DNA of 64,000 nt, taken from positions 801,212-865,211 of the forward strand of contig NMRA01000126.1 in the NCBI GenBank assembly GCA_002633005.1. Reading direction: 5' to 3'. Positions 1 through 63,905 of this stretch are shown here, piece after piece. The translations under genes were made by a program, and so were the position numbers. Every line of letters begins with the position of its first letter. The first letter of the stretch is position 1. This stretch comes from Phoronis australis (taxonomy: Eukaryota; Animalia; Phoronida). A model generated the notes under the pieces. It was given only the letters and a program-made list of their open reading frames with translations. It ran no database searches and was not told the origin of the DNA.

Positions 1-110
1 AAGTAATCCAACGGAATTAATGAGATTGAACATTTTGTTCTAAAGTTAGTCGAATCGTTTTCTACAATTCAGTCTCCCATTTTTCAAAGTGATTCTGTGT
101 GCGCTTTCAG

Positions 111-1497: not shown

Positions 1498-1554
<57 letters not shown>

Positions 1555-33670: not shown

Positions 33671-36600
33671 ATGTTTGTTCTGGTACTATCGTTTTTATCG
33701 TTGTTTCTTCGCTGGGGGCTGACCAGTTCAGATTATAGTAAGTTAACAACGGAGCAAGTAGATGAATTAGTTGAAAAGACGCTCTCTGAAATATCCTCTG
33801 CCGTAGATGAAATGAACGCTTCCTCTGATGAGAATGGTGAAGACGACGCATCAAATCGAAAGAAAAGGGATGACGAATGTGGAAAGATCTCGTGCTGGTC
33901 TGAATGGTCTGAGTGGACTGAATGTTCGTCTGCTTGCAACAGCGGTCACCAGATCCGATCGCGGACGTGTTTACATGATCGTAGGCGAAAGAGAAGTTCG
34001 TTGGGTGTGTCCACGTGCGAAGGCGATGATCACAGTATCCGCGAGTGCCAAGGCGAAGCGGGGCACTGTGGGGCTCAACACCGGCAACACCCGCCGAGTA
34101 ATGACGAAAGGAAGAGCTCGAAGGAGGAATTGACCGATGGAAAGTTTGAGAAAATATTAAAGATTCTCGACGGGACAACTGGTAGAGATGGTTGGAAAAG
34201 TAAGTAATCTATTACAGCAGCACATTGTAAACTTCAGAGTAGTCACATAATGACCATTCCTCCAAGTGAACTACTTGTTGTGCAAATTAGAAATAAACCC
34301 TCTGAAAACTCACTGCATTATTTGTGCCGGCATTGAAGAGCCACCTGATTTTTTATGGGAATTGATGATTGTCTTTCGCTAAAATTGCGTTGCGTTGCAG
34401 GGCCACGAGTCATAACTTAAAGCTGACCTCTCCATGTCTATGTTGGGAGGTGTTCTTGGCTATCTGACACCCCACTCAAACCAAGAACTGGTTTATTGCT
34501 CTGTCTATCACCATACGTCTGCAATCGGTGACACTGAGGTGCCCAAAGACTTCGAATTTGACTGGCATTCGCACAGCGATGCTTAGATGAGTGTTATTCG
34601 AATTTTTATCGTACAGGAGCAGTTTGCATCATTGCCTACATGGTCGGTGCGGAGAAAGAACCCTTAACCATGGACGGCTCACCATATAGGGGGCTGAGGC
34701 CCCTAGCCCCCGCTTTTTCAGCTCTGCGCTGCCCATGGTCTATAGGCGGTGCACCACAGGGAGGCTAAAGCCCCCATTTTTTCAGTGCTGCGTCGCCCAT
34801 GTGAACGTGTGCTTTGAATAACTGGTTTGTGCTATCTACAGAACTTCACACCTGAAGGCTGCGCGCTACGATCAAAATTTCTGGGTATAGGTGAGACGGA
34901 ACATCACCGCGGTTAGACTCCGCCGTATCTGAGAGGTATAGTACACGGTGGAGACGGCGGATGTGAGGGAATGAACAGATAAAGTTCTTGGTTTGAGCGG
35001 GGTGTCAGTGAGGCTGTGTCGGTACCGACAGCCAAGAATTCCTTACTGTGCAGACATGGCGGTGTGCGATTTAAGTGACCTGCCTCGTGACCCAGGGCTG
35101 TTGAAATATCATAGAACTCTAGTCCGGAGTTATTTAGCAACGCACACAGCAGTGGGCGACCGTCCCAATTTTCGCGGTCATCAGTCAGTCTCAGTAGGAA
35201 CCACACGCCTCGAAAACGTTGGAAGAAATATTGCTGTTTTCAGTGATATTTCAGAAGCCTTGCGGGGTTAACTTGAAACAAAATATCTGGCAAGAGAATT
35301 TCTGTATTAAGGATTTTTTGCAACCTTCTTTTGTTCCCGTTATTTGAAGCTGTTGAGCTTTATCGATCCACACTTTTGTTGGAGTACCCCATGGTATATG
35401 TTTTCCAAAGAAAGGACAAATTTGGAATAAAATGTTTTCTTGAAAAATATTTATTATTATAAAACCGCTGGAAACACTGACAAAGTTATAATAGGGGAAA
35501 AAAAAACGTTTATTAAGCGACTGTCTGCTACAGTGTTCTCAAGTGAATTTTTCCTTAGCGAATTTATCGATGATGTCTTCAAAGTAAAATGAGTCTAATT
35601 CGTCTTTCAAGGCATTAGAGTAGTCCCCCGACCTTGATTCACCGTTCATCATAGGCAACTTTTAACTATCTTCATGGTCAATGTGTTCTATCGAAATTGG
35701 AACCCCTGTGTAAAAGAGGTATCCTAAAGTCGAAAACATACTCCCGCACCTTCAAAACAGCTAACCAGCCCGAAAAACACGAACCCCGACCTTTAAAGCA
35801 GGAAACCCCGGGATCGAACAGGAAACCTAGGAACCGAAAAACCTTACCCAGTACCTTAGTCTTGTAACCTGTAGTTTGTGGCCATACAGCATGTAGACCT
35901 ATCAATTTCCCATTATGATGAAAAATCAATCTTTCTACTTTAAATAGTTGTGACATGTTGTTTTACTATATGAGAATTTTAGACAACTTATGACTGATTG
36001 GAGTTTTACCATTCTTCTGGTGCTAAAGTTGTGGTGCGATCTTTTGACTCCGCTTTCGACGCCATGAAATATTCCATCACTTATTTGCCAGTTTTTTTCT
36101 TCTACATTTCTTCAATTTACTATTCGTCTTCCACAAGGTTGCGTACATGTCACAACAAATTATCGAAACTGGTTTCATTTCGTTTTTAGTATTTTAATAC
36201 CATTAACTAAATATTCACCGAGATTATCAACGTGTTGAGAGTATGTTGAAATTCACCCACAGACAAATTACGCCAGTTTTACGGATAAAAATCAAATCAC
36301 AATGGAGTCAAGTTGAAATCGGTGCAACGTTTCAGCAAACATCATTGGTTAGGAAGCCGACCTGAGAGTTCAAATCAGTGCGTGAACACGGACACATTGA
36401 CGGGTGAAAAAAGGCAACTTTGGCCGAAAACATGCCTGGAATGCAACATCATTCCTGGATTCTTAATACTCGTGACGAGTGTACTGAACAACGTATCGTT
36501 AATGTTGGTTTGGCTCTTACTCAGTTTTAACCGGTTGTACCAAACTTTCTTAGAAATTAATGATAGAGCCATCTTAGTATGAAATGCACCTTCGATAATA

Positions 36601-39600
36601 AACGTCAGTGTAGGCTTACGTATTAAATGTGTATTGCAGGAAACTGTGAACATTCCGTTTGGAGCAGCTGGTCGCAATGTTCTGATACATGCGGAGAAGG
36701 AACTAAATCGAGAAAGAAGGCTTGCATGGATGAGCAGGGTGTAAAATGCAACGAAACCTTGTGTAAAGGACAAGGAGAAGAATCAATGATCTGTAACCGC
36801 GGAAAGAACGGGAAATGTGATCATAAAGCCGGGTTGACTATACGGAAGGTGAGAGCAAGCAACTGGCAGAGGAGAGACGCTGAGCAAGGTGAGTTGTCTG
36901 GGATCTGTCTGTGTCAGATAGTGGACATTTCTACTACTCTCCAGTCTTATTTTTGATCTCCAACACTCCAACCTCTCAATCAACCGCACAAGGATCATTA
37001 TTGAAATTTACAGATGTATTTCCATTAAGTAGATCATGGCTGATGCTGATTTTAAGCCAGCTTTGACTTCTTTTGCGCCCCAGCTAGTGGCGATGTTTGA
37101 GTCTCCGGCTGTACCCCGGCCTTTGACCAGAAGGATCCTTATGACATTTGGCTAGTGTCTTCCTCATGAAAATGTTAATGTTTGACCACGACTTTGGAGT
37201 GAATCTGACTACCGCTGTTCCCCTTATTGTTAATTTTAGTTTTTTATGTTTGCGTTTGTATCAAAATTTCCAGACGAGTGTTCATAAAATATTAAGATAG
37301 AGAGAACAGCCGCGTGTTGTGACTTGTATTGTTGTCGCCCGGGCAACAGTTGTGTGGATGTTAATGGCATGTATTGGCGTGCACCTCTATGCATCAAACC
37401 ACCCAAAAAATCATTATGGAAATTGACTGATGTGTTCATTCTGACAAGAGGACGTTGATTTTTGACGTTGCCGACTACTGTGGCGACCTCATTTTGTTGC
37501 ATCTGCGGCTTTATCTTCTATGGCCCTTGCTATTACAGTCTTTGTCTCCTAGATCATAACGCTTAATCGTCGTGAAAGACCGTCCGGAGTAAATATGGTG
37601 CAACTCGGGACGGTCTGGGGTCTACAGAAAACCACAGTTCAACTGTGGGTCTACACCATAAACGAGTGTAGTTCTACTTGCTGTGTCAGCTGCTGGTATG
37701 CTTATCGCTTTTATGACACACAATGTGTGACTGGGCAAAGCGTTTTCAAAATAACTGTGGATAAGTCAGTGGAGTGTGAGACCCCTGAGGTCCCTGTCAA
37801 GTCCTCACGGCAATTTTACGTGCTTGAGGCAACTTGATGTTTTGCGTTTGCGCCTGAATGTTAAGATTTCCTTGACGGATTTTCATGAAATGTGCTAAAT
37901 AGTTTTCTATCAGAGACACGACAATTAATGCTTTCCCATTGTCGGACGAGTTTGGCGTATTCTGGGCAATCTATTAGCAAGGAGCCTAGTACTACACTCC
38001 TTGCTATCAGTGTCCATTATTGTGATACTAATAAACACCCATAGAAACATTGCCATTTCCGGTGCTATCGTGGGCGCATTTCAGAGCTTCGCCTTGCTCT
38101 TGTAGATTATGAGGACGATGAAGAAGAAGACGATATTTCAGATCCAAAAATAAAAGAAGTGCTGAAAGTATTGAATGAATCGTTTTATTCTACGAAACCA
38201 ACAGGGATCACGACCACATCCACACCAGCTCCGACGCGTAAGTTCTTTTTATAAGAAAACATCCGGGGGACCTGGCCATCATCGCCATCGCCACTTCCAC
38301 CACCACTTTCAACATCGGGTGGGAGGCGTAAGTGATCTGTTTCGAGAAACATTCCCGTATCCCCGATGACATAAGACACGGTGGTTACCAATGCAATAGT
38401 TTGATGGGATTTGCGTTGGCAATTTGGATGTGCACTCTTTTCAAAACAGACCAGGTGCATATTGATGAAGTGAAAAATCGATCAATATACGAAAGCGTCG
38501 AGAAAATTATTTCATAGTCTGAACAGAGTTGACGCGAACAAATAAACCATAGACTGTGATATTATTTTTGTGTTCTGGGCTTTGCGAAGGATTTTTCTAA
38601 GTTCAATGAATGGAAATGTCCTGCACTGGGACCACCACCACCACCACCAGTCATCGTGTGGGCCCTGTCCGTCACTATTTTCCACTAAAAATTATTACAC
38701 GACCACTGATACTTCTAGCTTCTGTGAAACGCAGTATGACAACTTCCCTTATGAAGTGATGTTGACCAGTTAGCTGTGGAATAAAACTTTCTTTCTCACC
38801 ACCCTAACGTCAGATGTCGCTATTCACGATCTCACTAATTACAGGGCGCAGAAATTAAAAACCCCTGACAAAGAATGCAGACGATGGCTACAAAAACTGG
38901 TAAACACATGCCAAGTTAATAAGAAACGAAGAAATTAGAGGAAAGTAACATGATCAGTGTTTGAATAATAAAACAAATAATTTTCAACCTACTTCAGATT
39001 CACATCTTCACTAGGCCTATACATGTATGTTGTTATAACCTTCATCTTTACAACGTTTAAACTGATGAAGTTTATAGCCACCGCGCTTATTATTCGATTT
39101 CTAAATAGCATTGGCCAAAGAAAAACATGCTGTCAGTTGTGTTTAGTCAAGCTATCATAGTGATACGGAGTTAGCCTGCAAGTACCACTTTAAAGCTTCA
39201 AGTTCGAGTCAGATCTTGGAATTTTGAGTGAAACTCGGGATTTCGAGATGCAATCGAGTTTAGCTCAAATCTATGAATCGTCAAGTGTGAACTTTGACAT
39301 TCATGTTATTAATGTGCATATTGACTTTGTATCAAAACAGAAGCGAGAATGTCAAAAATAACTTCGGGCGAGATTGCGAGTACAAAGATTTGACCGCGGA
39401 CCCTCTTCTTATCGACCTGGGGCGAGCAATGTTGGAACATTGCTCCGCTGAGGCCTGTAAGACCTTATATCAATCTCAGGATCGGTGCGTTATTTCTTTG
39501 TGTATTATATAGAAAGCGTGTTTACTATCCCTGTGTATTTCAGATCGTTATGACCCCATCACAGACAGAAAAATTGAAGCCTTGTTAAACACTCTAGCCA

Positions 39601-42600: not shown

Positions 42601-45600
42601 GACAAAATGGCCGCCAGATTTGCAGATGAACATTATAACTCGAGAATGAAATTTGATAGAATAAAAATTTAAAAAGGTCATCCAAATTTCCAGAGCCAGA
42701 CATAGACACAACTCTTTCCAGCTTCAAATATGTCTTGCTTCAGCTGCATGGGTCTAATGAATACTCTAGCGTTTTCGCAGAATTCTCGATCATGCAGTTT
42801 CTTGAATGGGAGAGCCTTTGCTTGCGCAAATGGCAAAATTGCACAAGTTTCGTCTCCAAGAGACAACTGTAGTTTCTTGATGTCCCAGACTCTCCTCTTG
42901 CTTTGGTGCCTCTCGTCAAATTTCATGAACATTGGAAGTTGTTGTGAAACAGCATGGTAACACAAAAGAACCAACAACTCTGTGTCGTCTGCAATAAGGG
43001 TAGTTGGACCTTGTGCTGCGTTCTCTACTGCTGTTTCTATAATTAAAACGTCTGCGTCACCTTGAGCTTGTACCACTGTGCTACCAGCATTTCCTAGCAA
43101 ACTTGACAAGAAATGAATGAATCATTGTTTGTTTTTGCTGTTTGCCAAAAAATGTTCTGACATTGGCTTGATCATCATGTCACCATTGCAGTGAACTTCA
43201 CTTCCAAGCACCTCACCCAAAATTCGAACATGGGAAACATCTTTTGTTGATGATTCATCTCAGTAACCATCAAAAACAACAGTAGGCTGGGTGCACTTGC
43301 TGATGTAATCCACATAAGCTCTGCCAAACGACTGAAACGTTGCCTTTTGCACCTCTAGGCCATGGGATACTGTGAAGGAGAGAACAGCCGTCGATTACAT
43401 GCATCACCGTATTTTCTGGAAACTGAAACCCTCAGGTAGTCCCCCACTGGACCAGATTACATCAGCTAATATTGATTTAGTAGAGACTCTGGGAAGACCA
43501 GATGTTTCAAAAAGAGCAGGGGCACCAACACACAGCTCAAACTTGAAAAGGCTTCATGAACTTTCACTGTTATCTTTTGCAGATATCAGGATTCGCTGAA
43601 GTAGCAGTCGTGGATCCACTTATGTAAAATCACTATTAGCAACATGAACTGATTGACTTGTCATTACCACAACCTTGTCTTCCTTTCTGAATGTGAAGTC
43701 TTTCACGCTTGACCCCTCCATAGACAAGCGAATCGTCATCCCCACTTCTCTGCCATTCTCGGCATTGACGCGCGTGCGTGCAGTCACACCAGTGACGGCG
43801 CCCTGTAATGTTTCTTTTTAAAATGGGTTTCTGTTGTGGAGGAATTCAACAAGGCTGCGGATGTCTTTGTTGTCACTCGACTGTCTTGCCAGGGTACATT
43901 CTTTATGCTGCTGACATGTTTCACAACTCAAGTTTGTCACGGTCTGCATGGCACCATTTATACTTGAGCATACCGGCAAGGAAAGCAGCCACGGTGCACT
44001 CTGCGTATCTCCCATTTCGCAACCTCTAGTTAAAGCTCCTGGTGCTTTAATACTTTTCATGAACGTTTGTTAAATTACAAGATCATATGACAAGCCTGTC
44101 CAAAATCTGTCACTTTGTCTTATGACATCTGGACGGGTGTCTTTGAGTTGCTGCGTCTGCTCCAAGTATATGTATGCAGATTATGCATAAGAGTTGTGAC
44201 CAGCAGCTGCAAAGTAAGGCAGCATTTCAGAAACTGCTTTTAGGTGAACCTCCCAATCTGGCCGCGTTATTTGTGCTTTTAAAAAAATCGAAGGATGTCA
44301 GTCATCTTCATATACTGAAGCCAAAGACTAATAATTCAACTTTGCAAGGACAAGTCTAATTTATGTGCTTCGATTTTTATGGATACCTACAAGACACTCC
44401 GACGAGCATACATCGTCGCACACAGACGTCATGCCAGCAATAAGATCATTATACCGCTTCAGACCACCTCTCAGATCATCATCAAGTATATCATTGACCA
44501 TTGATTCTTCTGACGAACTATTCTCTGTCACTGCGAATTCTGAAGACCTATACTCTGATTCAGTCGTGTTTGAATATACCAGTGGCAGTAGGTCGGAAGC
44601 CAGAAGTGAACTCTCGTGAGGGTATTCCATTGTAATTCAAGGTTCAGAATCGGAAGACACTGGCTGTGCATTGCATGCCCCAGCGTATACATCTAGTTTT
44701 GTAATCAGTTGGGATGTCTGAAGAATCTGTCTCCATATTCTAACGAGCCAAAATTAGTGTTCAAGCATTGAAATGCCCCCCCGCTTGGCACGGAATCTGT
44801 GTGTTCTGCGTTGGTGACATTCGGGACTCTTGGGATTTCTGAAGAACCGGAACTTCTTTCATTAGTGGTTCTGGATTGACGTTACTTGATCTGTCAATAT
44901 TTGGAAGTGGGACATAAGGATCACACTGTTTCATGCATGCACCATCTCGAGAACTTTTTGAAGCTCTGTGCCTGACATTACATATCCAATACATCCCAGA
45001 AAGCTCATCTCAGTATGAAATCTGCCAAGCCTGGCGAAGAACAAGTGACTGCAGATTACTGTCGTTTTGTTTGCTGGCACTAATTTCTTCTAAAATCAGT
45101 TACCTATGTTCATAAAAAGCATGCATATTAAACAAATTGAGAGTACTAAATGTTAAAATTTAATTATTAACTTTGTTACACAATTTTATTTGCTTTTCAT
45201 CAAATTCAGATGAAATCAACAGCCAAATTCTCAACACATGCCAGCAGCAGACGAAATCATTGCTTGGGAACATCTAATAATATCTCCAATAGCAGATAAA
45301 AAAAGCCACTTTCTGCCCAATTTTATTCAGGGTTTGTGTAATGAATAAGCCAATAACTCCACCAGAATTTCATATTTTTCTGAGAATTATTATTTTTGAT
45401 ACCTCAAATGAATATATTTTACAGAAAAATAATTGAATGTGTGAAGTTTATTATGAAAATTTAACAAAAGCCTTTTCTGAAAAACACAACAAATTTTATG
45501 TTATGCAATCTAAAATGAGATTAAAATTTCACATTTAGTATCTAAATATGAAAAACAAATTATAGATACAATCCACTCATTAACCCTGACTGTAGATTGT

Positions 45601-46999
45601 AAAATGTTTTTGTGTAAATGCCTATCAGGTTACGGAACGTAAATGCTTTAAATTGGGGTTTTGTGAATTGGCGGCCATTTTAGCGGCCATTTTGTCAGCC
45701 ATCTTGATTTTTTTATCTCCAACCAGTGACCAATTGCAAGGTCCATATATTTTCAATTATCTACCTCACAAAAGAATAAAAATTTTGCCATTTTCAGAAC
45801 AAAATGTAAAACGAAATCTTTCAAAATGTACCAAATTGCCGTTTCGGCCGCCATATTGTCAGCCATATTGGTTTTCTTTCACGGAAAATTGGCATCTTTG
45901 GATTGGTATGCCTGTTACGGACAGTATAAAATTAATGACAAATTTCCAGCTGTTACATATGAGTAACATGCCAGAAAGCAGTAAACACCGGTTTAGACTT
46001 TTTTATGGCACCAAGGGATGTTTGAAGATGCCATTTGTGCAAAAAACCTTCTGTTGCAATTTTTTCTAGGTTGGGCCCTCTGGAGTCCTAGAATGACTGG
46101 ACTATTAGGTGATACTTGCGTCACAAAACGTCCTGTTGGCTCTTTTTAAAAGCTGACTGTGAGTTTACGCCCTGGTCCATTTGGTCTGTGTGCTCTAATA
46201 CGTGCAAAGGCGGTATGAAGATGCGGAAAAGAGCTTGTTTGGACAAACAAGGTGTTGTATGCGGGTCGAGCAAATGTAAGGGACTAAGAGAACAGTGGTC
46301 CAGTTGTCCTGAGGAGAACGACTGTCATGATGTTGGGTCAGCTGGCCGCCGTAACCTTCTTCAGGCGCGTTCCCTGATGGCAGGTAAAAGTAATCCTAAC
46401 TTAATGGTACAGAGCAGACTGCTGCAGCCGCATGCACGCGGCGTCAATTGGTAGGGTTCTTAGGTCACTGCCACTGATTAAATGTGCTAACTAGGTACTG
46501 CAAACTGAAAGATTGACATGACCAAAGAGTTTCCTGAAATAACTAGAAATTCAAGTATGTCCTGCTACAAACTTGCTTTCTCATTTGTGGAATTCCTTCA
46601 TTCCGAAAATGCCCGAATGTGGCAAAGTTAACGTCACTATGAAGTAAATCAAAAAATGTCCTTGCGAAATTCACCATACATAACGACTTATGGGTGTGAA
46701 TAGTGGTATCAGAAATTTTTACCAACCGATCTAAAACGGTGGACACTTTTTGTTTTTTCAGCACACCAAACTGTTGAGGTCCAGTGTTATGTCTTATATC
46801 ACTTCTTTCAGATACTGGGAATACACAGCCAAATACCCCGAAGTCAGTCAATAGCTTCATTTTAATTCCTACGATTGCAATCATTTTTGGAATACTCACA
46901 TCCACGTTAGTTGCCATGACGATAGTTTGTAAATACGCCATGAACCGACGGCGTTATCGTCACTCCGTCGACCGTTCTCATCGACTAGTACTAAATTAG
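33671..46999 (+). CDS. Predicted type I membrane protein with signal peptide, three thrombospondin type-1 (TSR) repeats and a C-terminal TM; internal exons partly uncertain
   Basis: Supported exons: 33671-34199 (signal peptide MFVLVLSFLSLFLRWGLTSS; WSEWSEWTECSSACNSG..RSRTC), 36640-36888 (WSSWSQCSDTCGEG..RKKAC), 38106-38237, 39544-39672, 46153-46383 (WSIWSVCSNTCKGG..RKRAC), 46812-46999 (TM FILIPTIAIIFGILTSTLVAMTIVC, then basic tail); all have phase-1 junctions. Candidate exons at 34401-34890 and 39341-39484 do not reconcile in phase. Confidence 0.7.
34669..34801. mobile_element. Dimeric CATGGGCG-ended mini-MITE (inverted copy of 29956-30098)
   Basis: catggacggc...cgcccatg with internal catggtctatag junction; flanks ttaac / tgaac. 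Confidence 0.65.
37565..37835 (+). repeat. Interspersed repeat, copy of 25548-25835
   Basis: Colinear similarity, including the hairpin agaccgtccggagt...actcgggacggtct. Confidence 0.8.
41096..41447. mobile_element. PIF/Harbinger-like MITE
   Basis: TIR gggcccgtttcatg / catgaaatgggccc, CAG at or overlapping both boundaries. Confidence 0.6.
42144..46104 (-). mobile_element. Decayed Academ-type (XPG-domain) DNA transposon in an intron of the TSR gene
   Basis: TIR tagtccagtcattcta / tagaatgactggacta (TAG...CTA termini), extending inward as tgcaacagaaggtttt / aaaaccttctgttgca; flanks tca / tta. Fragmented - strand ORFs include 42678-43109 'QAQGDADVLIIETAV...LIADDTELLVLLCYH', an XPG/PIN-like acidic motif. 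Confidence 0.75.
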
Positions 47000-49900: not shown

Positions 49901-50808
49901 AAAAAAGTAGAAAACGAGACAATATTCTACTAGACGACAGGAAGTACCAAAATTTAGCGTCTGCAATTCATAGCTCTGAACATACCCAATGAATCTTATA
50001 GTAAAAGATAGACATTCCAAAAAATTCCAGCCCCCCATTTTTTAGGGTTGGTGCTCTCAAACAAAGTCAGGGAAAATCTCTTTTGAAAGCCAACATTTTT
50101 GCACAGTTCGCCAGAAGTACCCAAGTTCCAGCGACCAGGTAGGCCTAAGGGTAGCCTTGATGCAAAGCTGTATAGGCCTACTAACAAGCTGTAGTTAGTC
50201 TTCATACTGGTCACGGGTAGCTGGCACTGAGGCTAGCTAATGGCTGCCGCGGCAGTGTGACACAGGACTAACCAGCCCGTAATTTTATGCAAGTGTCTGA
50301 AACTACCTCTGAATGTATACGACATTTGAACATTTTACTTCGACAAAAGAGCTTGCAACCGCATGCCTTTACCGTTCGCCAGTGTCTGGTCTCGATCCGC
50401 ACCGGGTCCGATAGGTTGCGGTCCCTTGTACGGCAAAATAATTTCTGTCAAAATTTATTCGCCACATTTTTTCAGCAAATTCGATAAAATTGTCCGTATT
50501 TTGGTTTTATTAAAATTAAGGCGCGTTGTCGATTATTTTATCCCCATTTGCAGGCTGGTAACAGGCACTCGTCCATTCACACTGACGGCGTTTTTAACCT
50601 GAGTCCTGAATGAATTGTACTTCCGGGTTCGCGGTAAGTTCAAAATGGCGGTGGTTCTTCGGGTACGAATCGTGAGTGGCGCGTTCAATTAAACTTTTTT
50701 CGAGTACGGACTGTGTATTAGTTATGGGGTAAGTACTTCTTGGATCCTTATAACAACCTCTAACCATGTAATAAGGGTTAACAACGTGTGAGACCAGGAC
50801 TTTAAGGT

Positions 50809-50814
50809 TTTATT
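50809..50814 (-). terminator. Candidate polyadenylation signal (AATAAA) of the amidase array gene
   Basis: tttatt on + strand, ~150 nt downstream of the TAA at 50963. Confidence 0.5.
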
Positions 50815-50962
50815 CGAATTCATGAATGGCTTACAAATATTCGGATTGGCAATTTTTCTGTTATTCTACGATAAACTTGATTTGAAAGCCAAAAATTTGA
50901 TTTTTTGGCTAAGAGGTCTCAAATAACCACGTGAGACCCCGTAGTCACAGATCTACAAGCAG

Positions 50963-52559
50963 TTATGTCGAAATTTCAAACAAGCAGAACTCTTTACACT
51001 TGACGAAGTAACACTTGTTTCTACATTTCTTGCCGTCCCACAAGTCGATATGTCCTGTGGGATGCTTGGGGTTATTCTTCCAGGTGCAGTGACGGAATGT
51101 AATGATTCCTTTCTTTCCCTGAAATATAATGACAATCGTCAAGTCGTTTGAATACTTAACTGTAGTAGTCAACAGACTGATGTATAATGTATGGAATTTT
51201 TCGGTAACGTTTTAAGTATAGATTGGAATATCAAATCACCGGTGTTGTAATTAAAAAGATTAACCATCATTGTACAGTGACAGGCCCGTAGCCAGCATTG
51301 CGCGGAGAGTGATTCGAATTTCTAAAACGGTGGACCTTTTGATCATATTTTGTGAACGTCGGCCGCTTTTTCCGTAGCGCCCTTAGACAGAAAAATCCGG
51401 CATCAAGCGCTTTGATTCACAACCAAATTTGAAATTAGTAGCAAGTTGGTTATTATTGTAGTTAGTAGTACCAACAATAACTAGTACAATTTTGTTGATA
51501 TTGATGTTCAACTATATTCTATGCTATTCTGCTGGGGTTGGACCTTTTCCGCGGGGGGTCGATCGAACTCCCCAACCTCCCGTGGCTACGGTCCTATATG
51601 TACGTTATTCGGGAGAAAATAAAACCAAAAAGCGCGACAAGCTAGTCAGTGTACGAAAAACTAATATATTACACGTTTGAACATGGTGTAACAGACGTTT
51701 GACAGTGAAATCCTTCTTTACTTTTAAATTCATGAAGTTGCGTGAATTTAGTAAGCACCCGGATATTGCTCTGCAGCCGGCGGAAGTGGCGAATGAAAAT
51801 GTCATGGAACCGATGTAATATTGTTTGCAACTTCAGCAAAAGAACATTTCTACAGCATTTTGATGGCGTGTTATATGTCAATAACTTACCGCTAATTTTG
51901 ATTCCTTCTTGACACACAACGGCTTTTTGAAAATCTTCGTCAGGTAGCAATGCCACGTGTCCGCTCTGATGACGTATTTTTGACTTTGTTTGTTCTTAAA
52001 GCCAGACCAGTTACAATTATCAGATTCCTTGATGCATATCTTGTAGCCTGTTCGAAGATGCAGGGCAGGAAGAACGGTATGAGTAAGGTTCAAATCGTGT
52101 GCAAAATTGTAAATTCATTTGGTACCTTTTTGGTTTTCCGAAATTCAGTTAAATTATGATGACTAGATGGACGAACATAAAATCTGTGTTCTGATGTTTC
52201 AAAAAATTAAACATTAACTTAAACCAAACAAAAGAGGAATAAATACTTATCACGTGGATCATGAGATTACATAATCTTGATAACATTGGGCATAATTATG
52301 TGACTTGATGCTTGACTAGTGGAGGTGGCAATTTTTTGTGAAATTGATGAACATGGAAAAACAGAGAAGAGCCAAGGTGAGATTAAGCCTTGCGTTAACT
52401 TCGGAAGGTCGTACTTACCTAATTGATATAATGTGTAACTCAATCTCATGCCGCATGTATCACCATAATTTTTATCAAATCCCGCCTTTTTCCACATTGC
52501 AGATTTATCGAACGTTTTTGGGTCAGGATACTTAGTCCACAAATCGTTGAACGTGAAAC
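50963..52559 (-). CDS. dae4: Tae4-like amidase domain, C-terminal unit (no linker, true stop)
   Basis: Exons 52559-52419, 52047-51890, 51118-50963: GFTFNDLWTKYPDPKTFDKSAMWKKAGFDKNYGDTCGMRLSYTLYQL|GYKICIKESDNCNWSGFKNKQSQKYVIRADTWHCYLTKIFKKPLCVKKESKLA|GKKGIITFRHCTWKNNPKHPTGHIDLWDGKKCRNKCYFVKCKEFCLFEIST*. Confidence 0.88.
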
Positions 52560-55500
52560 CTGCAAAATCACAGAAATAACAAATACAGCGTTCACGTGGC
52601 GTCCGATCAAAAGGCGGGTCAGCCGCGGTACAAAAAGGTTACCCGCACCATTAAAACGACAATACACCCCCTAGTGCCATAAAGTATTTTATGTTGGATC
52701 ACGTGACGCTGTAAATTAGCTCTCAAACAAAGAAACAAATGACAGTTCATTGAAATGATACAAAAAGTGGTTTGAAGATTTCAACCAATCCTCGTTCTGT
52801 CACCTGCTAATGCATCATTACCGGTAATCTCGAAAGATACAAGCGGGAATCAACTATTAATTCACACTTCCAATCTCACAACTTGCACGTTACGTCATTG
52901 GTGGGTGGCCTTTTCCCACAGTTGCCGCCTAACTCGCTAAAATGAAAGTCACTTTTGCCCATTTAGAAGTTTTTAAATTTCCTAGCAAACATTTGATGAA
53001 GATTGAGGTCTGCTGAGCATTAGCTTGCTTCAGAGAACTGGATGGAGAAGTCGTTTTTAGTAGCTGTTAAAGGGCCAGAACCTGGTTTGGCATCTTTTCA
53101 ATAGTTGAGATCTTACGCCGTGATCGATCTACGCTATGCAGCTTGATTTCACGTAATAACAAACCGCTAGTTTTTCATAAGCCCAGGAATTCAGTCGCCC
53201 GACTAACAAACAAGCTAAGTCCAGATTTGTAGCGGTATCGTCATCAATTCGGAATTAGTTTTTTACTACAGCGACTGTGTGGAGGGCTTAATCGACAGAG
53301 TCTGTGCACTGTGTCAAAATATCTACAAAAACTGTAAAGCTTTTTATATAACTGAGAAAAATTATGCTTTTTCTGACAGTAGAAAGACTGTAAAATTTAT
53401 TTGCGTCTCCACCTTTTGGCATCAATACCGCAACCAAGTTTTGTTTGATACATTTGTTCAAGATGAAATCTCAAACATGATGTCACAGTTTTCTTCTTAA
53501 TTATCATTTCATTTTTGTTTACTGAAATGTTTGATTTTTCCATGATAAACATAAAATTCTTCATAAGCGCTACACTTACACAGTGGTAGGCCAGCGAGAC
53601 GAGCTAGTTCAAAGTGAAACAAGAGCATGAATGAGAATATAAAGTCAAATATTATGACAATGAATAATCATACAATACAGACTATTATCTACTGTGTAAA
53701 GGTTATGACAAAGTGTGACAGATGCAGGCCGATGCTGCATCCATTCACCCTTATATTTTGTAAATTCCAGTCACAAAAGTTTATCATTCAAAAAGCAAAT
53801 ACCAAAATTACTTTTGAGAACAGTGCATGTATCTCAAAGTTCCACTTGAATTGGATTACCCATATCTGAGATATGTTTCAAAACTCGCCAAGAAATGTGA
53901 AATTTTCCTTGGGTTCTGTCTAACCTTAATTTAAGTAGCGCTGAAATAGATGGTGGTGTATTTCATACATTAGAATTCGTTTTAAGAGTTCTTGATCAAC
54001 AAGATCGTGGTTTAAAAGACAAAAACAAAGTCTTCCAAAATTTGTTGAAAAAATTCCCATCATGGTCAATTTTAAGAAAACCATCACACGCTACTCAAAA
54101 AATCAGATCTTACCTGCAATCTTCTTCGTTTCATTACATGACGGAGATGGTGTAGTAGAACCATGGATGGGCGAACTAGAGGAGGATTCGGTAAATCGAG
54201 TACTTCCCGATGGTGTGATATCTGTTGCTGGCGAAGCGTTTTTTGCCGTGGTGTAATTAGTTGGGAAAGTGGTGGCAGTTGATGCTGGGGTTCTAGTTGG
54301 GGATCTGGTGGTAGTCGGGGTAGTGATGGTAGTCGGGGGTCTGGTGGTAGTCGGCGAGGTGGTGGTAGACAGGGGTGTGGTGGTCGTTGGGGATGTGGTG
54401 GCATTCGGGGAAGTGTTTGTAGTCGAAATTTCAAATAAGCAGAACTCTTTACACTTGACGAAGTAACACTTGTTTCTACATTTCTTGCCGTCCCACAAGT
54501 CGATATGTCCTGTAGGATGCTTGGGGTTATTCTTCCAGGTGCAGTGCCGGAATGTTATGATTCCTTTCTTTCCCTGAAATATATTGCCAATCGTCATGTG
54601 GTTTGAATACTTAACTGGGGTTGTCAACAGACTGTTGTATAATGTATGGAATTTTTCGGTAACGTTTTAAGTATAGATTGGAATATCAAATCACCGGTCT
54701 TGTAATTAAAGACATGAACAATCATGGTACCATGTCGAAGTTTTTCGGTAGAAAATGAAAACCTTAAACGTGACAAACTGAACAGTGTACGAAAAACAAA
54801 TATCTTACACGTTGAAACACGGTGTATCAGACGTTTGGCACTGAAATCCTTCTTAATTGGGTCTAACTTTTACATTCAATTAGTTGCGTGAAATTAGTAG
54901 GCGGTCATATATTGTTTTGCATCCGGCGGAAACCGCCGATGAAAATGTCATGGAAGCGATGTAATATTGTTTGCAATTTCAGCAAAAAGAAATTTCTTCT
55001 GCATTCTGACTCTGAGACCAACTTACCGCTAGATCTGATTCCTGCTTTACACACAACGGCTTTTTGAAAATCTTCGTCAGGTAGCAATGCCATGTGTCCG
55101 CCCTGATGACGTATTTTTGACCTTGTTTGTTCTTAAAGCCCGACCAGTCACAGTTATCAGATTTCTTGATGCATATCTTGTAGCCTGTTCGAAGATATAG
55201 GGCAGGAAGAACGACATAAACAAGTTTCAAATCGTGTGCAAATTTGTAAATTGACTTGATAGTTCTTGTTTTCCGAAAACCATATTTGAAATTTAAATAG
55301 TATTTTACGCGTCTTGATGCCCGACAGCTTCAGGAGAACTGTCCAGGAGGCCAAATTTTGTCAATTTCTTGCCAATGAAAATACAATGGGAAGTGTCATA
55401 TTAAGATAAGTCCTGAGTTAACTTCGGAAGCTCGTACTTACCTAATTGATATAATGTGTAACTAAATCTCAGGCCGCATGTATCACCATAACTTTTATCA

Positions 55501-58500
55501 AATCCCGCCTTTTTCCACATTGCAGGCTTGTCAAATATGTTTGGGTCCGGGTACTTTGTCCACAAATCATTGAAAGTAAAATCTGCAAAGTCATAGAAAT
55601 AACAAATACAGCGTTCTCGTGGTGTCCGATTGAAAGAGTTGTCCGCCGTCTTTTTTGACTTGACTTTTTATAAACATTTCACATCTGACTGCGTCATAAA
55701 ATTTTTATCTGTACCATTAAAGCGAATATAAACACCCTAGTTGACGCAAAAATAACTTGGGTTAGATCAATTTCCGCTGTAAATTAGGTCTCAAACAAAG
55801 AAAGAACTGACAGTAGGCTACCTTAGTAAGGTACAAAAGCCTGTTTGGACGATTTCAACCAATCCTTGCTCTGTCACCTGCTTATGCATCTTTGGCGTCA
55901 ATTTCGAAAGATAAGGGCAAGAATCAACTAAAAATTCATATTCCAATATCGCAATATGGATATGACGGTCACTGGTGAGTGATCTTTTCCGACAGTTGCC
56001 GCATGATTCGCTAAAACGTAGGTTACGCTTGTTCATTTAGCAGTTTTTAAATTTCCCTGCAAACCTTTAAAGATTATGGATGGTTGCAGAGCATTATTTT
56101 GTTTCAAAGAACTGGATGGGAACGTCGTTTTTAGTACCTGTTAAAGAGCCTGAACCGGGTTTGGAAGCCTGTTCATTGTTGAGATAATGTGCCGTGATCG
56201 AGTTACGCTATCAAGGTTGATTTCGCGTAATAATGAAGTGCTAGTCTTTAACAATCCCGGGAATTCATCCGCTCTACTAATGAACAAGCTAAGTCTAGAG
56301 TTGTAGCGGTAATATCGGAAATCAGAGTTAGGTTTTTTACCGAAGGCGGCTTGATGTAGGACTTAATCGACAGAGTCTGTAAATTCAACTAAATTTCTGG
56401 ATACATGTAACTATAAAGTTTAACTGAGTAAAAGTATGCATTTTCTGAAATAAAATCCTATAAAATTTGTTTTGAGTCTTTCTATTAATCAGCCGTCTAT
56501 TGGAACACGTCACTTTGTCTTTTTAGTAAAGAAAGACACATTCTGTGAAAAACAACTGCATCAATATCGTAGCCAAGTTTTTGTTGATACAAGTATTCAA
56601 TACGAAATCTAAACAATTATGTCAGAGTGTTCTTAATTATCATTTCGCTTTCGTTTCCTAAAATGTTTACTTTTTTCATCATAGCCGTGAAAATTATTTA
56701 TATGCGCTGCACAAATGCAGGCCGATGCTGCATCCATCCACCTTCTATATTTGATAAACACTGGTACCAAATTTGATCATTGCAAAAGCAAACACCAAAA
56801 GTGCTTTTGAGAACAGTGCATTAGTATAGTATCTGAAAATTTGACCTCAACCTGGATAGCTTTTCCGAGAATTGTTTTAACGTTCGCCCTGAAATATGGA
56901 TTTTTTTCTGGAATCCTATGTAACCTTAGTATATGGACAGTAGATGATGTACAGAAATGTTCGATTTTTCATTCTTCAAAATTCGTTTTCGGAATTCTAG
57001 ATGCACAAGATTCTGGTCTAAAAGGCAAAAGTAACGTTTTACAACATTTGTAAAAAATAGTCAGGATGGCCAATTTTAAGAGAACCATCACACTCTTTTC
57101 AGACAATCAGATCTTACCTGCAATCTTCTTCGTTTCATTACATGACGGAGATGGTGTAGTAGAACCATGGATGGGCGAACTAGAGGAGGATTCGGTAAAT
57201 CGAGTACTTCCCGATGGTGTGATATCTGTTGCTGGCGAAGCGTTTTTTGCCGTGGTGTAATTAGTTGGGAAAGTGGTGGCAGTTGATGCTGGGGTTCTAG
57301 TTGGGGATCTGGTGGTAGTCGGGGTAGTGATGGTAGTCGGGGGTCTGGTGGTAGTCGGCGAGGTGGTGGTAGACAGGGGTGTGGTGGTCGTTGGGGATGT
57401 GGTGGCATTCGGGGAAGTGTTTGTAGTCGAAATTTCAAATAAGCAGAACTCTTTACACTTGACGAAGTAACACTTGTTTCTACATTTCTTGCCGTCCCAC
57501 AAGTCGATATGTCCTGTAGGATGCTTGGGGTTATTCTTCCAGGTGCAGTGCCGGAATGTTATGATTCCTTTCTTTCCCTGAAATATATTGCCAATCGTCA
57601 TGTGGTTTGAATACTTAACTGGGGTTGTCAACAGACTGTTGTATAATGTATGGAATTTTTCGGTAACGTTTTAAGTATAGATTGGAATATCAAATCACCG
57701 GTCTTGTAATTAAACACATGAACAATCATGGTACCATGTCGAAGTTTTTCGGTAGAAAATGAAAACCTTAAACGTGACAAACTGGACAGTGTACGAAAAA
57801 CAAATATCTTACACGTTGAAACACGGTGTATCAGACGTTTGGCACTGAAATCCTTCTTAATTGGGTCTAACTTTTACATTCAATTAGTTGCGTGAAATTA
57901 GTGGGCGGCCATATATTGTTTTGCATCCAGCGGAAACCGCCGATGAAAATGTCATGGAAGCGATGTAATATTGTTTGCAATTTCAGCAAAAAGAAATTTC
58001 TTCTGCATTCTGACTCGGAGACCAACTTACCGCTAGATCTGATTCCTGCTTTACACACAGCGGCTTTTTGAAAATCTTCGTCAGGTAGCAATGCCACGTG
58101 TCCGCCCTGATGACGTATTTTTGACCTTGTTTGTTCTTAAAGCCCGACCAGTCACAGTTATCAGATTTCTTGATGCATATCTTGTAGCCTGTTCGAAGAT
58201 AGAGGGCAGGAAGAACGACATATACAAGTTTCAAATCGTGTGCAAATTTGTAAATTGACTTGATAGTTCTTGTTTTCGGAAAACCATATTTGAAATTTAA
58301 ATAGTATTTTACGCGTCTTGATGCCCGACAGCTTCAGGAGAACTGTCCAGGAGGCCAATTTTTGTCAATTTCTTGCCAATGAAAATACAATGAGAAGTGT
58401 CATATTAAGATAAGTCCTGAGTTAACATCGGAAGCTCGTACTTACCTAATTGATATAATGTGTAACTAAATCTCAGGCCGCATGTATCACCATAACTTTT

Positions 58501-61500
58501 ATCAAATCCCGCCTTTTTCCACATTGCAGGCTTGTCAAATATGTTTGGGTCCGGGTACTTTGTCCACAAATCATTGAACGTAAAATCTGCAAAGTCATAG
58601 AAATATCAAATACAGCGTTCTCGTGGTGTCCGATTGAAAGAGGGATCCGCCGTCTTTTTTGACTTGACTTTTTATAAACATTTCACATCTGACTGCGTCA
58701 TAAAATTTTTATCTGTGCCATTAAAGCGAATATAAACACCCTAGTTGACGCAAAAAGAACGTGGGTTAGATCAACTTCCGCTGTAAATTAGGTCTCAAAC
58801 AAAGAAAGGACTGACAGTAGGCTACCTTAGTAAGGTACAAAAGCCTGTTTGGACGATTTCAACCAATCCTTGCTCTGTAACCTGCTTATGCATCTTTGGC
58901 GTCAATTTTGAAAGATAAGGGCAAGAATCAACTAAAAATTCATATTCCAATATCGCAATATGGATATGACAGTCACTGGTGAGTGATCTTTTCCGACAGT
59001 TGCCGCTGGAATCGCTAAAACGTAGGTTACGCTTGTTCATTTAGCAGTTTTTAAATTTCCCTGCAAACCTTTGAAGATTATGGATGGTTGTAGAGCATTA
59101 TTTTGTTTCAAAGAACTGGATGGGAACATCGTTTTTAGTACCTGTTAAAGAGCCTGAACCGGGTTTGGAAGCCTGTTCATTGTTGAGATAATGTGCCGTG
59201 ATCGAGTTACGCTATCAAGGTTGATTTCGCGTAATAATGAAGTGCTAGTCTTTAACAATCCCGGGAATTCATCCGCTCTACTAATGAACAAGTTATGTCT
59301 AGAGTTGTAGCGGTAATGTCAGAAATCAGAGTTAGTTTTTTTACCGAAGGCGGCTTGATGTAGGACTGAATCGACAGAGTCTGTAAATTCAACTAAATTT
59401 CTAGATACATGTAACTATAAAGTTTAACTGAGTAAAAGTATGCATTTTCTGAAATAAAATCCTGTAAAACTTGTTTTGAGTCTTTCTATTAATCAGACGT
59501 CTATTGGAACACGTCACTTTGTCTTTTTAGTAAAGAAAGACACATTCTGTGAAAAACAACTGCATCAATATCGTAGCCAAGTTTTGGTTGATACAAGTAT
59601 TCAATACGAAATCTAAACAATTACGTCAGAGTGTTCTTAATTATCATTTCGCTTTCGTTTCCTATAATGTTTACTCCTTTCATCATAGCCATGAAAATTA
59701 TTTATATGCGCTGCACCGAGTCACTGGAAGGGCTGCGAGACGAACTCCCGAAGCTAATTAACAGTGAAACAACAACATGGATTAGATTATAAAGTCTTAT
59801 ATTATGACAATGACTGATCATTTATTAGAGAGTAAAATCTACTGTGCAAAGGTGTGTGACAATGTGCCACAAATGCTGTCCGATGCTGCATCCATCCACC
59901 TTCTGTATTTGATAAACACTGGTACCAAATTTGATCATTGCAAAAGCAAAGACCAAGAGTGCTTTTGAGAACAGTGCATTAGTATAGTATCTGAAAATTT
60001 GACCTCAACCTGGATAGCTTTTCCGAGAATTGTTTTAACGTTCGCCCTGAAATATGGATTTTTTCTGGAATCCTATGTAACCTTAGTATATGGACAGTAG
60101 ATGATGTACAGAAATGTTCGATTTTTCATTCTTCAAAATTCGTTTTCGGAATTCTAGATGCACAAGATTCTGGTCTAAAAGGCAAAAGTAACGCTTTACA
60201 ACATTTGTAAAAAATAGTCAGGATGGCCAATTTTAAGAGAACCGTCACACTCTTTTCAGACAATCAGATCTTACCTGCAATCTTCTTCGTTTCATTACAT
60301 GACGGAGATGGTGTAGTAGAACCATGGATGGGCGAACTAGAGGAGGATTCGGTAAATCGAGTACTTCCCGATGGTGTGATATCTGTTGCTGGCGAAGCGT
60401 TTTTTGCCGTGGTGTAATTAGTTGGGAAAGTGGTGGCAGTTGATGCTGGGGTTCTAGTTGGGGATCTGGTGGTAGTCGGGGTAGTGATGGTAGTCGGGGG
60501 TCTGGTGGTAGTCGGCGAGGTGGTGGTAGACAGGGGTGTGGTGGTCGTTGGGGATGTGGTGGCATTCGGGGAAGTGTTTGTAGTCGAAATTTCAAATAAG
60601 CAGAACTCTTTACACTTGACGAAGTAACACTTGTTTCTACATTTCTTGCCGTCCCACAAGTCGATATGTCCTGTAGGATGCTTGGGGTTATTCTTCCAGG
60701 TGCAGTGCCGGAATGTTATGATTCCTTTCTTTCCCTGAAATATATTGCCAATCGTCATGTGGTTTGATTACTTAACTGGGGTTGTCAACAGACTGTTGTA
60801 TAATGTATGGAATTTTTCGGTAACGTTTTAAGTATAGATTGGAATATCAAATCACCGGTCTTGTAATTAAAGACATGAACAATCATGGTACCATGTCGAA
60901 GTTTTTCGGTAGAAAATGAAAACCTTAAACGTGACAAACTGAACAGTGTACAAAAAAAAAAATATCCTACACGTTGAAACACGGTGTATCAGACGTTTGG
61001 CACTGAAATCCTTCTTAATTGGGTCTAACTTTTACATTCAATTAGTTGCGTGAAATTAGTGGGCGGATATATTTTTTTTTGCATCCGGCGGAAACCGCTG
61101 ATGAAAATGTCATGGAAGCGATGTAATATTGTTTGCAATTTCAGCAAAAAGAAATTTCTTCTGCATTCTGACTCCGAGACCAACTTACCGCTAGATCTGA
61201 TTCTTGCTTTACACACAACGGCTTCTTGAAAATCTTCGTCAGGTAGCAATGCCACGTGTCCGCCCTGATGACGTATTTTTGACCTTGTTTGTTCTTAAAG
61301 CNNNNNNNNNNNNNNNNNNNNNNNNNNNNNNNNNNNNNNNNNNNNNNNNNNNNNNNNNNNNNNNNNNNNNNNNNNNNNNNNNNNNNNNNNNNNNNNNNNN
61401 NNNNNNNNNNNNNNNNNNNNNNNNNNNNNNNNNNNNNNNNNNNNNNNNNNNNNNNNNNNNNNNNNNNNNNNNNNNNNNNNNNNNNNNNNNNNNNNNNNNN

Positions 61501-63905
61501 NNNNNNNNNNNNNNNNNNNNNNNNNNNNNNNNNNNNNNNNNNNNNNNNNNNNNNNNNNNNNNNNNNNNNNNNNNNNNNNNNNNNNNNNNNNNNNNNNNNN
61601 NNNNNNNNNNNNNNNNNNNNNNNNNNNNNNNNNNNNNNNNNNNNNNNNNNNNNNNNNNNNNNNNNNNNNNNNNNNNNNNNNNNNNNNNNNNNNNNNNNNN
61701 NNNNNNNNNNNNNNNNNNNNNNNNNNNNNNNNNNNNNNNNNNNNNNNNNNNNNNNNNNNNNNNNNNNNNNNNNNNNNNNNNNNNNNNNNNNNNNNNNNNN
61801 NNNNNNNNNNNNNNNNNNNNNNNNNNNNNNNNNNNNNNNNNNNNNNNNNNNNNNNNNNNNNNNNNNNNNNNNNNNNNNNNNNNNNNNNNNNNNNNNNNNN
61901 NNNNNNNNNNNNNNNNNNNNNNNNNNNNNNNNNNNNNNNNNNNNNNNNNNNNNNNNNNNNNNNNNNNNNNNNNNNNNNNNNNNNNNNNNNNNNNNNNNNN
62001 NNNNNNNNNNNNNNNNNNNNNNNNNNNNNNNNNNNNNNNNNNNNNNNNNNNNNNNNNNNNNNNNNNNNNGCGTCAATTTCGAAAGATAAGGGCAAGAATC
62101 AACTAAAAATTCATATTCCAATATCGCAATATGGATATGACGGTCGCTGGTGAGTGATCTTTTCCGACAGTTGCCGCATGATTCGCTAAAACGTAGGTTA
62201 CGCTTGTTCATTTAGCAGTTTTTAAATTTCCCTGCAAACCTTTGAAGATTATGGATGATTGTAGAGCATTATTTTGTTTCAAAGAACTGGATGGGAACGT
62301 CGTTTTTAGTACCTGTTTAAGAGCCTGAACCGGGTTTGGAAGCCTGTTCATTGTTGAGATAATGTGCCGTGATCGAGTTACGCTATCAAGGTTGATTTCG
62401 CGTAATAATGAAGTGCTAGTCTTTAACAATCCCGGGAATTCATCCGCTCTACTAATGAACAAGCTAAGTCTAGAGTTGTAGCGTTAATATCAGAAATCAG
62501 AGTTAGTTTTTTTACCGAAGGCGGCTTGACGTAGGACTTAATCGACAGAGTCTGTAAATTCAACTAAATTTCTAGATACATGTAACTATAAAGTTTAACT
62601 GAGTAAAAGTATGCATTTTCTGAAATAAAATCCTATAAAATTTGTTTTGAGTCTTTCTATTAATCAGCCGTCTATTGGAACAAGTCACTTTGTCTTTTTA
62701 GTAAAGAAAGACACATTCTGTGAAAAACAACTGCATCAATATCGTAGCCAAGTTTTGGTTGATACAAGTATTCAATACGAAATCTAAACAATTATGTCAG
62801 AGTGTTCTTAATTATCATTTCGCTTTCGTTTCCTAAAATGTTTACTTTTTTCATCATAACCATGAAAAGTATTTATATGCGCTGCACCGAGTTACTGGAA
62901 GGGCTGCGAGACGAACTCCCGAAGCTAATTAACAGTGAAACAACAACATGGATTAGAATATAAAGTCTTATAATATGACAATAACTGATCATATATTAGA
63001 GAGTAAAATCTACTGTGCAAGGGTGTGTGACAATGTGCCACAAATGCAGGCCGATGCTGCATCCATCCACCTTCTATATTTGATAAACACTGGTACCAAA
63101 TTTGATCATTGCAAAAGCAAACACCAAAAGTGCTTTTGGGAACAGTGCATTAGTATAGTATCTGAAAATTTGACCTCAACCTGGATAGCTTTTCCGAGAA
63201 TTGTTTTAACGTTCGCCCTGAAATGTGGATTTTTTCTGGAATCCTATGTAACCTTAGTATATGGACAGTAGATGATGTACAGAAATGTTCAATTTTTCAT
63301 TCTTCAAAATTCGTTTTCGGAATTCTAGATGCACAAGATTCTGGTCTAAAAGGCAAAAGTAACGTTTTACAACATTTGTAAAAAATAGTCAGGATGGCCA
63401 ATTTTAAGAGAACCATCACACTCTTTTCAGACAATCAGATCTTACCTGCAATCTTCTTCGTTTCATTACATGACGGAGATGGTTTAGTAGAACCATGGAT
63501 GGGCGAACTAGAGGAGGATTCGGTAAATCGAGTACTTCCCGATGGTGTGATATCTGTTGCTGGCGAAGCGTTTTTTGCCGTGGTGTAATTAGTTGGGAAA
63601 GTGGTGGCAGTTGATGCTGGGGTTCTAGTTGGGGATCTGGTGGTAGTCGGGGTAGTGATGGTAGTCGGGGGTCTGGTGGTAGTCGGCGAGGTGGTGGTAG
63701 ACAGGGGTGTGGTGGTCGTTGGGGATGTGGTGGCATTCGGGGAAGTGTTTGTAGTCGAAATTTCAAATAAGCAGAACTCTTTACACTTGACGAAGTAACA
63801 CTTGTTTCTACATTTCTTGCCGTCCCACAAGTCGATATGTCCTGTAGGATGCTTGGGGTTATTCTTCCAGGTGCAGTGCCGGAATGTTATGATTCCTTTC
63901 TTTCC
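50963..63905 (-). CDS. dae4: Multi-domain Tae4-like (domesticated amidase effector, Dae4-type) peptidoglycan amidase with Thr/Pro/Ser-rich linkers; 5' end outside the window
   Basis: Repeating exons A (141 nt, phase 1-1), B (158 nt, phase 1-0), C (460 nt, phase 0-1; 156 nt with stop in the last unit) join in frame across all units. Catalytic Cys motif DTCG[ML]R[LF]SY and His motif GKKGII..GHIDLWDG..CxxxC correspond to Tae4 NACPIRMSY and GKKGII..GHVTLWNG..CSDQC. Confidence 0.85.
51281..51596. mobile_element. MITE inserted only in the terminal amidase unit intron
   Basis: TIR caggcccgtagcca / tggctacggtccta; absent from the paralogous introns at ~54730, ~57735 and ~60890. Confidence 0.7.
54114..55582 (-). 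CDS. dae4: Tae4-like amidase domain + mucin-like linker, unit 2
   Basis: Exons 55582-55442, 55184-55027, 54573-54114, all AG/GT with gtaag donors, open in frame. Confidence 0.88.
57118..58586 (-). CDS. dae4: Tae4-like amidase domain + mucin-like linker, unit 3
   Basis: Exons 58586-58446, 58188-58031, 57577-57118; near-identical to unit 2 at +3004 bp. Confidence 0.88.
60275..61301 (-). CDS. dae4: Tae4-like amidase domain + linker, unit 4 (exon A and start of exon B fall in the assembly gap)
   Basis: Exon C 60734-60275; exon B visible from 61301 to its donor at 61189. Confidence 0.8.
61302..62069. other. Assembly gap (N run) within the tandem array
   Basis: 768 Ns; the flanks correspond to positions ~760 bp apart in intact units. 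Confidence 0.98.
63446..63905 (-). CDS. dae4: Tae4-like amidase unit 5, exon C + linker (exons A and B beyond the window)
   Basis: Same acceptor, donor and 460-nt length as the other internal units; one visible linker change (GSTK versus GSTT). Confidence 0.82.

Follow-up and report, generated by a model that had tools for sequence, protein, structure and literature searches.

We conclude, with a probability of roughly 78%, that the minus-strand locus whose last unit occupies positions 50963-52559 of the window, i.e. the whole stretch of 64,000 nucleotides that was analysed and to which all positions refer, is a spliced and transcribed animal Dae4 gene, which consists of tandem domains joined by Ser/Thr/Pro spacers, was inherited from a shared transfer and encodes a predicted secreted, multi-headed peptidoglycan endopeptidase. 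Secretion, glycosylation and activity are predicted from relatives and from composition. The locus is a member of the known domesticated animal Dae4 family and not a new transfer; what is new here is the long chain with mucin-like spacers together with the diverged active-site rim, the transfer itself being already known.

The three exons of the last unit (A, B and C), read on the minus strand, encode a 150-residue Tae4-family domain. The earlier note had placed the catalytic Cys on exon A and the His on exon C, split by two spliceosomal introns. Indeed, its coordinates and phases proved exact, and RNA reads span both introns (counts are given for the read runs X6, X7 and X8, respectively).

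52419-52559, minus strand: exon A of the terminal unit, 141 nt, with splice joints at both ends in RNA reads
52455-52453, minus strand: catalytic Cys codon in terminal exon A, aligned with C63 of nvDae4 of Nematostella vectensis
52048-52418, minus strand: intron A-B of the terminal unit, 371 nt, GT-AG, phase 1, crossed by 33, 31 and 1 RNA reads
51890-52047, minus strand: exon B of the terminal unit, 158 nt
51119-51889, minus strand: intron B-C of the terminal unit, 771 nt, GT-AG, phase 0, before GKKG, crossed by 23, 25 and 5 RNA reads
50963-51118, minus strand: exon C of the terminal unit with the stop codon, 156 nt, with Pfam and PDB matches to Tae4
51052-51050, minus strand: His codon in terminal exon C, aligned with the Tae4 His
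51046-51044, minus strand: likely triad Asp (His+2) in terminal exon C
51019-51017, minus strand: Asn at His+11 in terminal exon C

The phase-1 intron A-B interrupts the Gly codon after YQL. The view that catalytic residues on separate exons are unusual was rejected, as this appears to be the normal state of the Dae4 family. An AATAAA at position 50814 on the minus strand, 149 nt past the stop codon, represents a candidate poly(A) signal.

The terminal unit closes an array that repeats every 3.0-3.5 kb and reaches the window end; three complete and two partly visible units lie in the window. When the three complete units are joined, they give a single 656-codon frame with its sole stop at the end.

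52560-54113, minus strand: phase-1 intron of 1554 nt between terminal exon A and the linker exon of the unit before it, crossed by 1, 8 and 2 RNA reads in X6, X7 and X8
54114-54573, minus strand: exon C and linker of internal unit 1, 460 nt, no stop, transcribed over 54114-54420
55027-55184, minus strand: exon B of internal unit 1
55442-55582, minus strand: exon A of internal unit 1
57118-57577, minus strand: exon C and linker of internal unit 2
58031-58188, minus strand: exon B of internal unit 2
58446-58586, minus strand: exon A of internal unit 2
60275-60734, minus strand: exon C and linker of internal unit 3
61189-61301, minus strand: visible 3' part of exon B of internal unit 3, with exon A and the rest of exon B under the N run 61302-62069
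63446-63905, minus strand: exon C and linker of internal unit 4, with the gene running on past the window end

The internal exons C have no stop and read through into a 104-residue Ser/Thr/Pro-rich linker (55 Ser/Thr, 15 Pro, five N-glycosylation motifs, an 18-bp degenerate repeat), which ends at a phase-1 donor, so that each three-exon unit starts and finishes at a phase-1 intron. The chain probably arose by tandem duplication of this phase-1-flanked unit. The coding sequences of the internal units differ by only 0-3 letters and their introns by 1.3-2.7% as well as in length; recent expansion or homogenisation would keep these units near-identical. The catalytic residues are intact in all visible copies, as had been claimed earlier, with Cys in 3/3 exons A and His in 5/5 exons C, the remaining exons A being located under the N run and past the window end.

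The RNA evidence consists of the raw-read runs X6-X8 from one study and the contig set X5 from another, taken to be RNA by guess; these four runs were mapped to positions 50500-54420. The X5 contigs show the same two introns, A-B and B-C, spliced out. In addition to the reads across the 1554-nt intron, 11 and 10 more reads connect the linker with an inner portion of exon A, which is the pattern expected of internal units. The first mate of intron-crossing reads always lies on the plus strand, which in most stranded libraries corresponds to minus-strand RNA. Most reads over introns A-B and B-C carry the letters of internal units: all ten variant letters checked were of this kind, and at 10 diagnostic sites 761 of the 900 letters from X6 and X7 were internal-type, i.e. 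about 5.5 internal units per terminal unit, a rough ratio given allele differences and mapping bias. X8 contributed few reads, and its exon C site was internal-type in 0/7. These read ratios suggest a total of about six or seven units in the gene. An apparent joint going back 3454 nt was dismissed as an artefact of where the mapped stretch ended. Three further stretches (50500-50890, 52770-52820 and 53029-53069) were covered by RNA reads with many loose ends, partly on both strands; they are dispersed repeats located downstream of the gene and within its intron.

Exon C alone matched Pfam Tae4 (PF14113) with 29.9 bits (cut-off 27, E 6e-7) and, in the PDB, the Tae4 chains of Salmonella and Enterobacter. 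Searched singly, exons A and B had no match in Pfam, and exon A matched nothing in the PDB; neither the window exons nor nvDae4 matched NCBIfam, and no candidate emerged when longer proteins were searched with exon C by word index. A profile of 10 animal-type Dae4 rows, built without the window row, scored the spliced domain at 118.7 bits, compared to 113.6 bits for the best bacterial row and at least 165 bits for the other full-length animal rows; against a profile built from 7 prokaryote-type rows the domain reached E 4e-24. Among the 1.84 billion representatives searched, 18 matched, 17 of them with Pfam Tae4; P0002 and P0003 are repeat-inflated matches, which were excluded from every tree. 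In BLASTP comparisons with 78 rows, the best 30 non-self rows were all animal-type Dae4 domains (top match 38% identity and 96 bits, best prokaryote-type row 67 bits). Relatives from named animals belong to Nematostella, Exaiptasia, Actinia, Branchiostoma, Ptychodera and Glandiceps, and one cluster of relatives contains LOC5507694, which is nvDae4 (P0024/P0025). Of the mollusc, annelid and hemichordate Dae4 genes that the earlier note referred to, acorn-worm members were recovered, while none of the relatives in our searches was named as a mollusc or annelid sequence. The Exaiptasia relative P0006 was modelled with AlphaFold from an alignment which included the window exons; the model reached a pLDDT of 89.8, all of its 11 PDB matches at E <0.001 were Tae4/Ssp1 chains, and other NlpC/P60 folds were matched only at E 0.09 or worse.

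Cys35 of the window domain aligns with C63 of nvDae4. An Asp is found at His+2 in all 23 animal-type rows read, the window included, and in 51/62 across all rows read; at His+11 nvDae4 shares the Asn of the window. Tae4 enzymes have one of two triad types, with the Asp either at His+11 (St, Ec) or at His+2 (Ssp1, AtTae4) (PMC6277958, PMC3852654), and Tae4 of Salmonella and of Enterobacter requires the His+11 Asp (PMC3695027). In the window domain, an Asn does face this Asp of the Salmonella enzyme, and the pairing made by eye earlier, of the Asp of Tae4 'CSDQC' with the Asn of 'CRNKC', was therefore right. A triad crippled by this Asp-to-Asn change was rejected, since the His+2 Asp is present and the active nvDae4 carries the same Asn. 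From the alignment, the third triad residue is likely to be the Asp at His+2, as in Ssp1. Of the 44 columns that show conservation in 19 or more of the 21 animal rows, the window domain retains 30, and 14 are changed. Among these changes is an Asn to Asp replacement two residues ahead of the Cys, at the site which corresponds to Asn48 of Ssp1 and holds Asn in 47 of the 48 other rows with the motif read. Further features are an Ala to Gly change after the Cys and a four-residue insert ahead of the His strand. The window domains are strongly basic (net +14 to +17) and contain 10 Cys each.

A papain-like NlpC/P60 enzyme fold is predicted for each domain, in which His122, oriented by Asp124, would activate Cys35, and the triad would cut the gamma-D-Glu-mDAP stem bond or its Gram-positive equivalent. 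The basic domains would attach to anionic cell walls, and the linkers would represent O-glycosylated extended spacers, which would retain the enzyme in mucus or matrix and provide avidity.

For the phylogeny, 80 domain rows were reduced to 62 in a quick tree by removing 18 duplicates, fragments and faulty models, and to 37 in a careful tree by removing a further 10 long branches and 15 near-copies; P0034 and P0037 were counted as animal-type by similarity. In the careful tree, which is unrooted, the window grouped with 14 animal-type rows (support 97/84), i.e. with the Dae4 domains of anemones, lancelets and acorn worms, and the quick tree also joined it to the animal-type rows (SH-aLRT 86). 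The window row has an odd composition and a long branch (1.68), which lies outside those of the remaining animal rows; being unrooted, the tree would fit both a position as sister to the animals and a separate gain from a near donor.

The intron sites of the relatives were derived from protein records, i.e. from gene calls and not from DNA. On this basis, a phase-0 site before GxxG is apparent in P0047, P0005 and P0045: of the two on anemone-like contigs, P0047 departs from the P0006 sequence with a Val just before GxxG and P0005 joins after Gln, and the lancelet model P0045 contains a retained insert which opens with Val at the same site. In the lancelet P0040 and the Actinia P0033, the end of the Cys helix is joined to the domain start, which fits phase 1 at both sites. 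For P0048/P0055 the start site fits, but there is an Ile where a phase-1 donor predicts Gly. The three intron sites of the window thus agree with boundaries inferred from P0005, P0047, P0045, P0040 and P0033, which would speak for one origin. When metagenomes were scanned with the animal alignment, 23 loci were found (27-37% identity), none of which resembles an intron-bearing animal gene. Chou et al. 2015 reportedly described several independent tae transfers and took shared splice sites as evidence. According to Margolis et al. (bioRxiv 2021.05.13.443009), the Nematostella genes had been identified by Chou et al. 2015.

Terminal and internal units differ with dN 0.035 and dS 0.29 over 149 codons, and the resulting dN/dS of 0.12 (Fisher p <0.0001) indicates purifying selection; exon C alone shows 4 silent and 0 replacement changes, and the introns have an aligned identity of 77-86%. 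Two internal units are separated by 3 silent changes in 252 codons. The GC3 of the gene is 0.53, close to that of two host ORFs (0.52 and 0.47). The proposal of an old bacteria-to-animal transfer kept under selection is supported by the tree, the inferred intron sites, the dN/dS ratio, the host-like GC3 and the Tae4 sequence with the P0006 fold, and the gene is likely to descend, as far as sequence comparison can tell, from an ancient bacterial transfer common to anemones, lancelets and acorn worms. In bacteria, Tae4 domains are found on their own with Tai4, on RHS proteins or next to SH3 or peptidoglycan-binding domains, and hence the donor need not have been a strict T6SS effector. P0004, P0009 and P0017, which look secreted and have Cys-rich and Pro-rich repeats before the Tae4 domain, cluster together in a separate clade within the prokaryote-type rows and might reflect a separate transfer into a microbial eukaryote.

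Among the alternatives, it seems unlikely that the ancestry is as described but that peptidoglycan activity was lost or changed, so that the domains would bind bacteria multivalently or, as proteases, cleave a different substrate. The Asn to Asp and Ala to Gly changes next to the Cys, the insert before the His strand and the long branch would fit such a change, as would the mucin-like chain layout, which is suited to trapping, and a Nematostella paralogue (P0023) that is without its Cys; however, the Cys, the His and the His+2 Asp are retained in all visible copies, and exon C has accumulated silent changes only. We regard it as quite improbable that Tae4 was acquired from bacteria in a separate, lineage-specific transfer and intronised afterwards. 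This could account for the position of the long branch outside the other animal rows and for the narrow profile margin above bacterial rows (118.7 vs 113.6 bits), and the P0004/P0009/P0017 clade suggests that the family can move repeatedly, but the three intron sites fall where they are inferred to lie in anemones and lancelets, the animal group is supported at 97/84 and the top 30 BLASTP rows are animal-type.

The near-identity of the internal coding sequences and the N run inside the array could also mean that only one domain is real, the internal repeats having arisen in assembly or belonging to separate genes in a row. This is very improbable, considering the sequence and length differences between the internal introns, the reads from linker to exon A (11 terminal-type and 21 probably internal-type) and the prevalence of internal-type letters at the diagnostic sites. 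Bacterial contamination, rejected in view of the GT-AG introns spliced in RNA and the animal neighbours, and descent from a vertically inherited eukaryotic papain/NlpC family together have a negligible probability, and we found no evidence in favour of either; the latter, which the earlier note had named among the outcomes that would overturn its proposal, is contradicted by the Tae4-only matches of the P0006 model, and of those members of the nearest Atlas clusters of nvDae4 that have a record, 93-100% are bacterial.

The closest relatives of the gene described here are the animal Dae4 proteins of sea anemones, lancelets and acorn worms, among them nvDae4, which cleaves Gram-negative and Gram-positive peptidoglycan, kills B. 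subtilis and is inactive as C63A (Margolis et al., bioRxiv 2021.05.13.443009 / PMC8713801). The two have Tae4 domains that are 37-38% identical, the corresponding Cys, the Asp at His+2, the Asn at His+11 and an animal immune-type context in common. However, nvDae4 has a single domain with a secretion signal, whereas the window gene encodes a chain of at least five domains with 104-residue linkers; moreover, the window has 10 Cys per domain compared to 4, an Asp instead of the Asn before the catalytic Cys, and, as the only one of the two, the insert at the His strand. Branchiostoma floridae LOC118421628 (P0019; relatives P0001 and P0022) also has three tandem Tae4 domains with low-complexity linkers and a stop directly after the last domain, and the inferred intron sites of its group match those of the window, but this group is acidic (pI 4.6-5.2) with short linkers, while the window domains and linkers have a pI of 9.4-9.5. 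Since P0019 groups with single-domain lancelet Dae4, the lancelet chain is separate in origin and chaining happened at least twice. The lancelet chain (P0019, P0001) has a lectin-like part at its N-terminus, which in the lancelet P0040 is named a C-type lectin by UniRef. Bacterial Tae4/Ssp1 (PF14113; PDB 4J30, 4HFF, 4HFK, 6IJF, 4BI3) have the same Cys-His dyad and a CxxxC pair after the His strand; the window gene differs by its introns, its chain layout, the missing T6SS/Tai4 context and the lack of the His+11 Asp, its triad type being that of Ssp1/AtTae4. Tick Dae2 is likewise a domesticated Tae-superfamily amidase used against bacteria, but belongs to the Tae2 family and to another, younger transfer (bioRxiv 2020.04.10.036376). 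Other fusions are found in Ptychodera flava P0007, with Dae4 behind DUF6973, and in Glandiceps P0057, with Dae4 behind a small Cys-rich domain.

It is possible, although we consider it doubtful, that the bacterial amidase turned, after the ancient transfer, into a phase-1-flanked module open to duplication, from which multi-headed cell-wall hydrolases were assembled independently in two animal lineages, here as a basic, mucin-spaced chain with about six or seven active heads and a reshaped active-site rim; held in mucus, this chain would act as an antibacterial polymer, in a host group without a recorded Dae4. Our literature searches, which covered search listings, yielded no description of a chain with mucin-like spacers; Chou et al. 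2015 and Zhang et al. 2013, which lay outside their scope, may already describe the lancelet chain, the common introns or additional host groups. The locus adds a strongly diverged member to the Dae4 family as well as evidence for an intron layout common to anemones, lancelets and this host, and raises the question whether the chaining of a domesticated bacterial toxin alters its avidity, mucus retention or target range. If the host phylum is one without a recorded Dae4, the range of the family widens and more losses are needed.

In the window, a search with one Tai4 query, which is a weak test, gave a best E of 1.3, in line with the earlier statement that no Tai4-like gene is visible; the locus has no T6SS/Tai4 context and is not classed as a T6SS effector. 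The ordinary metazoan genes that had been reported beside it could be validated, i.e. a Jagunal exon (PF07086, E 4e-40; 30304-30807, plus strand), three exons with TSP1 domains, which possibly belong to one gene (33665-34207, 36627-36956 and 46113-46454, plus strand), and exons that match DnaJ weakly and contain a HEPN domain (50-3478, plus strand), a layout known from the end of sacsin-like proteins. The transposons reported alongside could not be validated: both candidate ORFs (27640-28107, plus strand, and 42678-43121, minus strand) resemble decayed transposon pieces by eye and are without a significant Pfam match. A weak SIMPL match (PF04402) under the cut-off was found at 17101-17406 on the minus strand, and positions 12507-14220 form a long imperfect palindrome of about 1.7 kb, whose nested inverted arms are 79-90% complementary and which resembles a foldback element.
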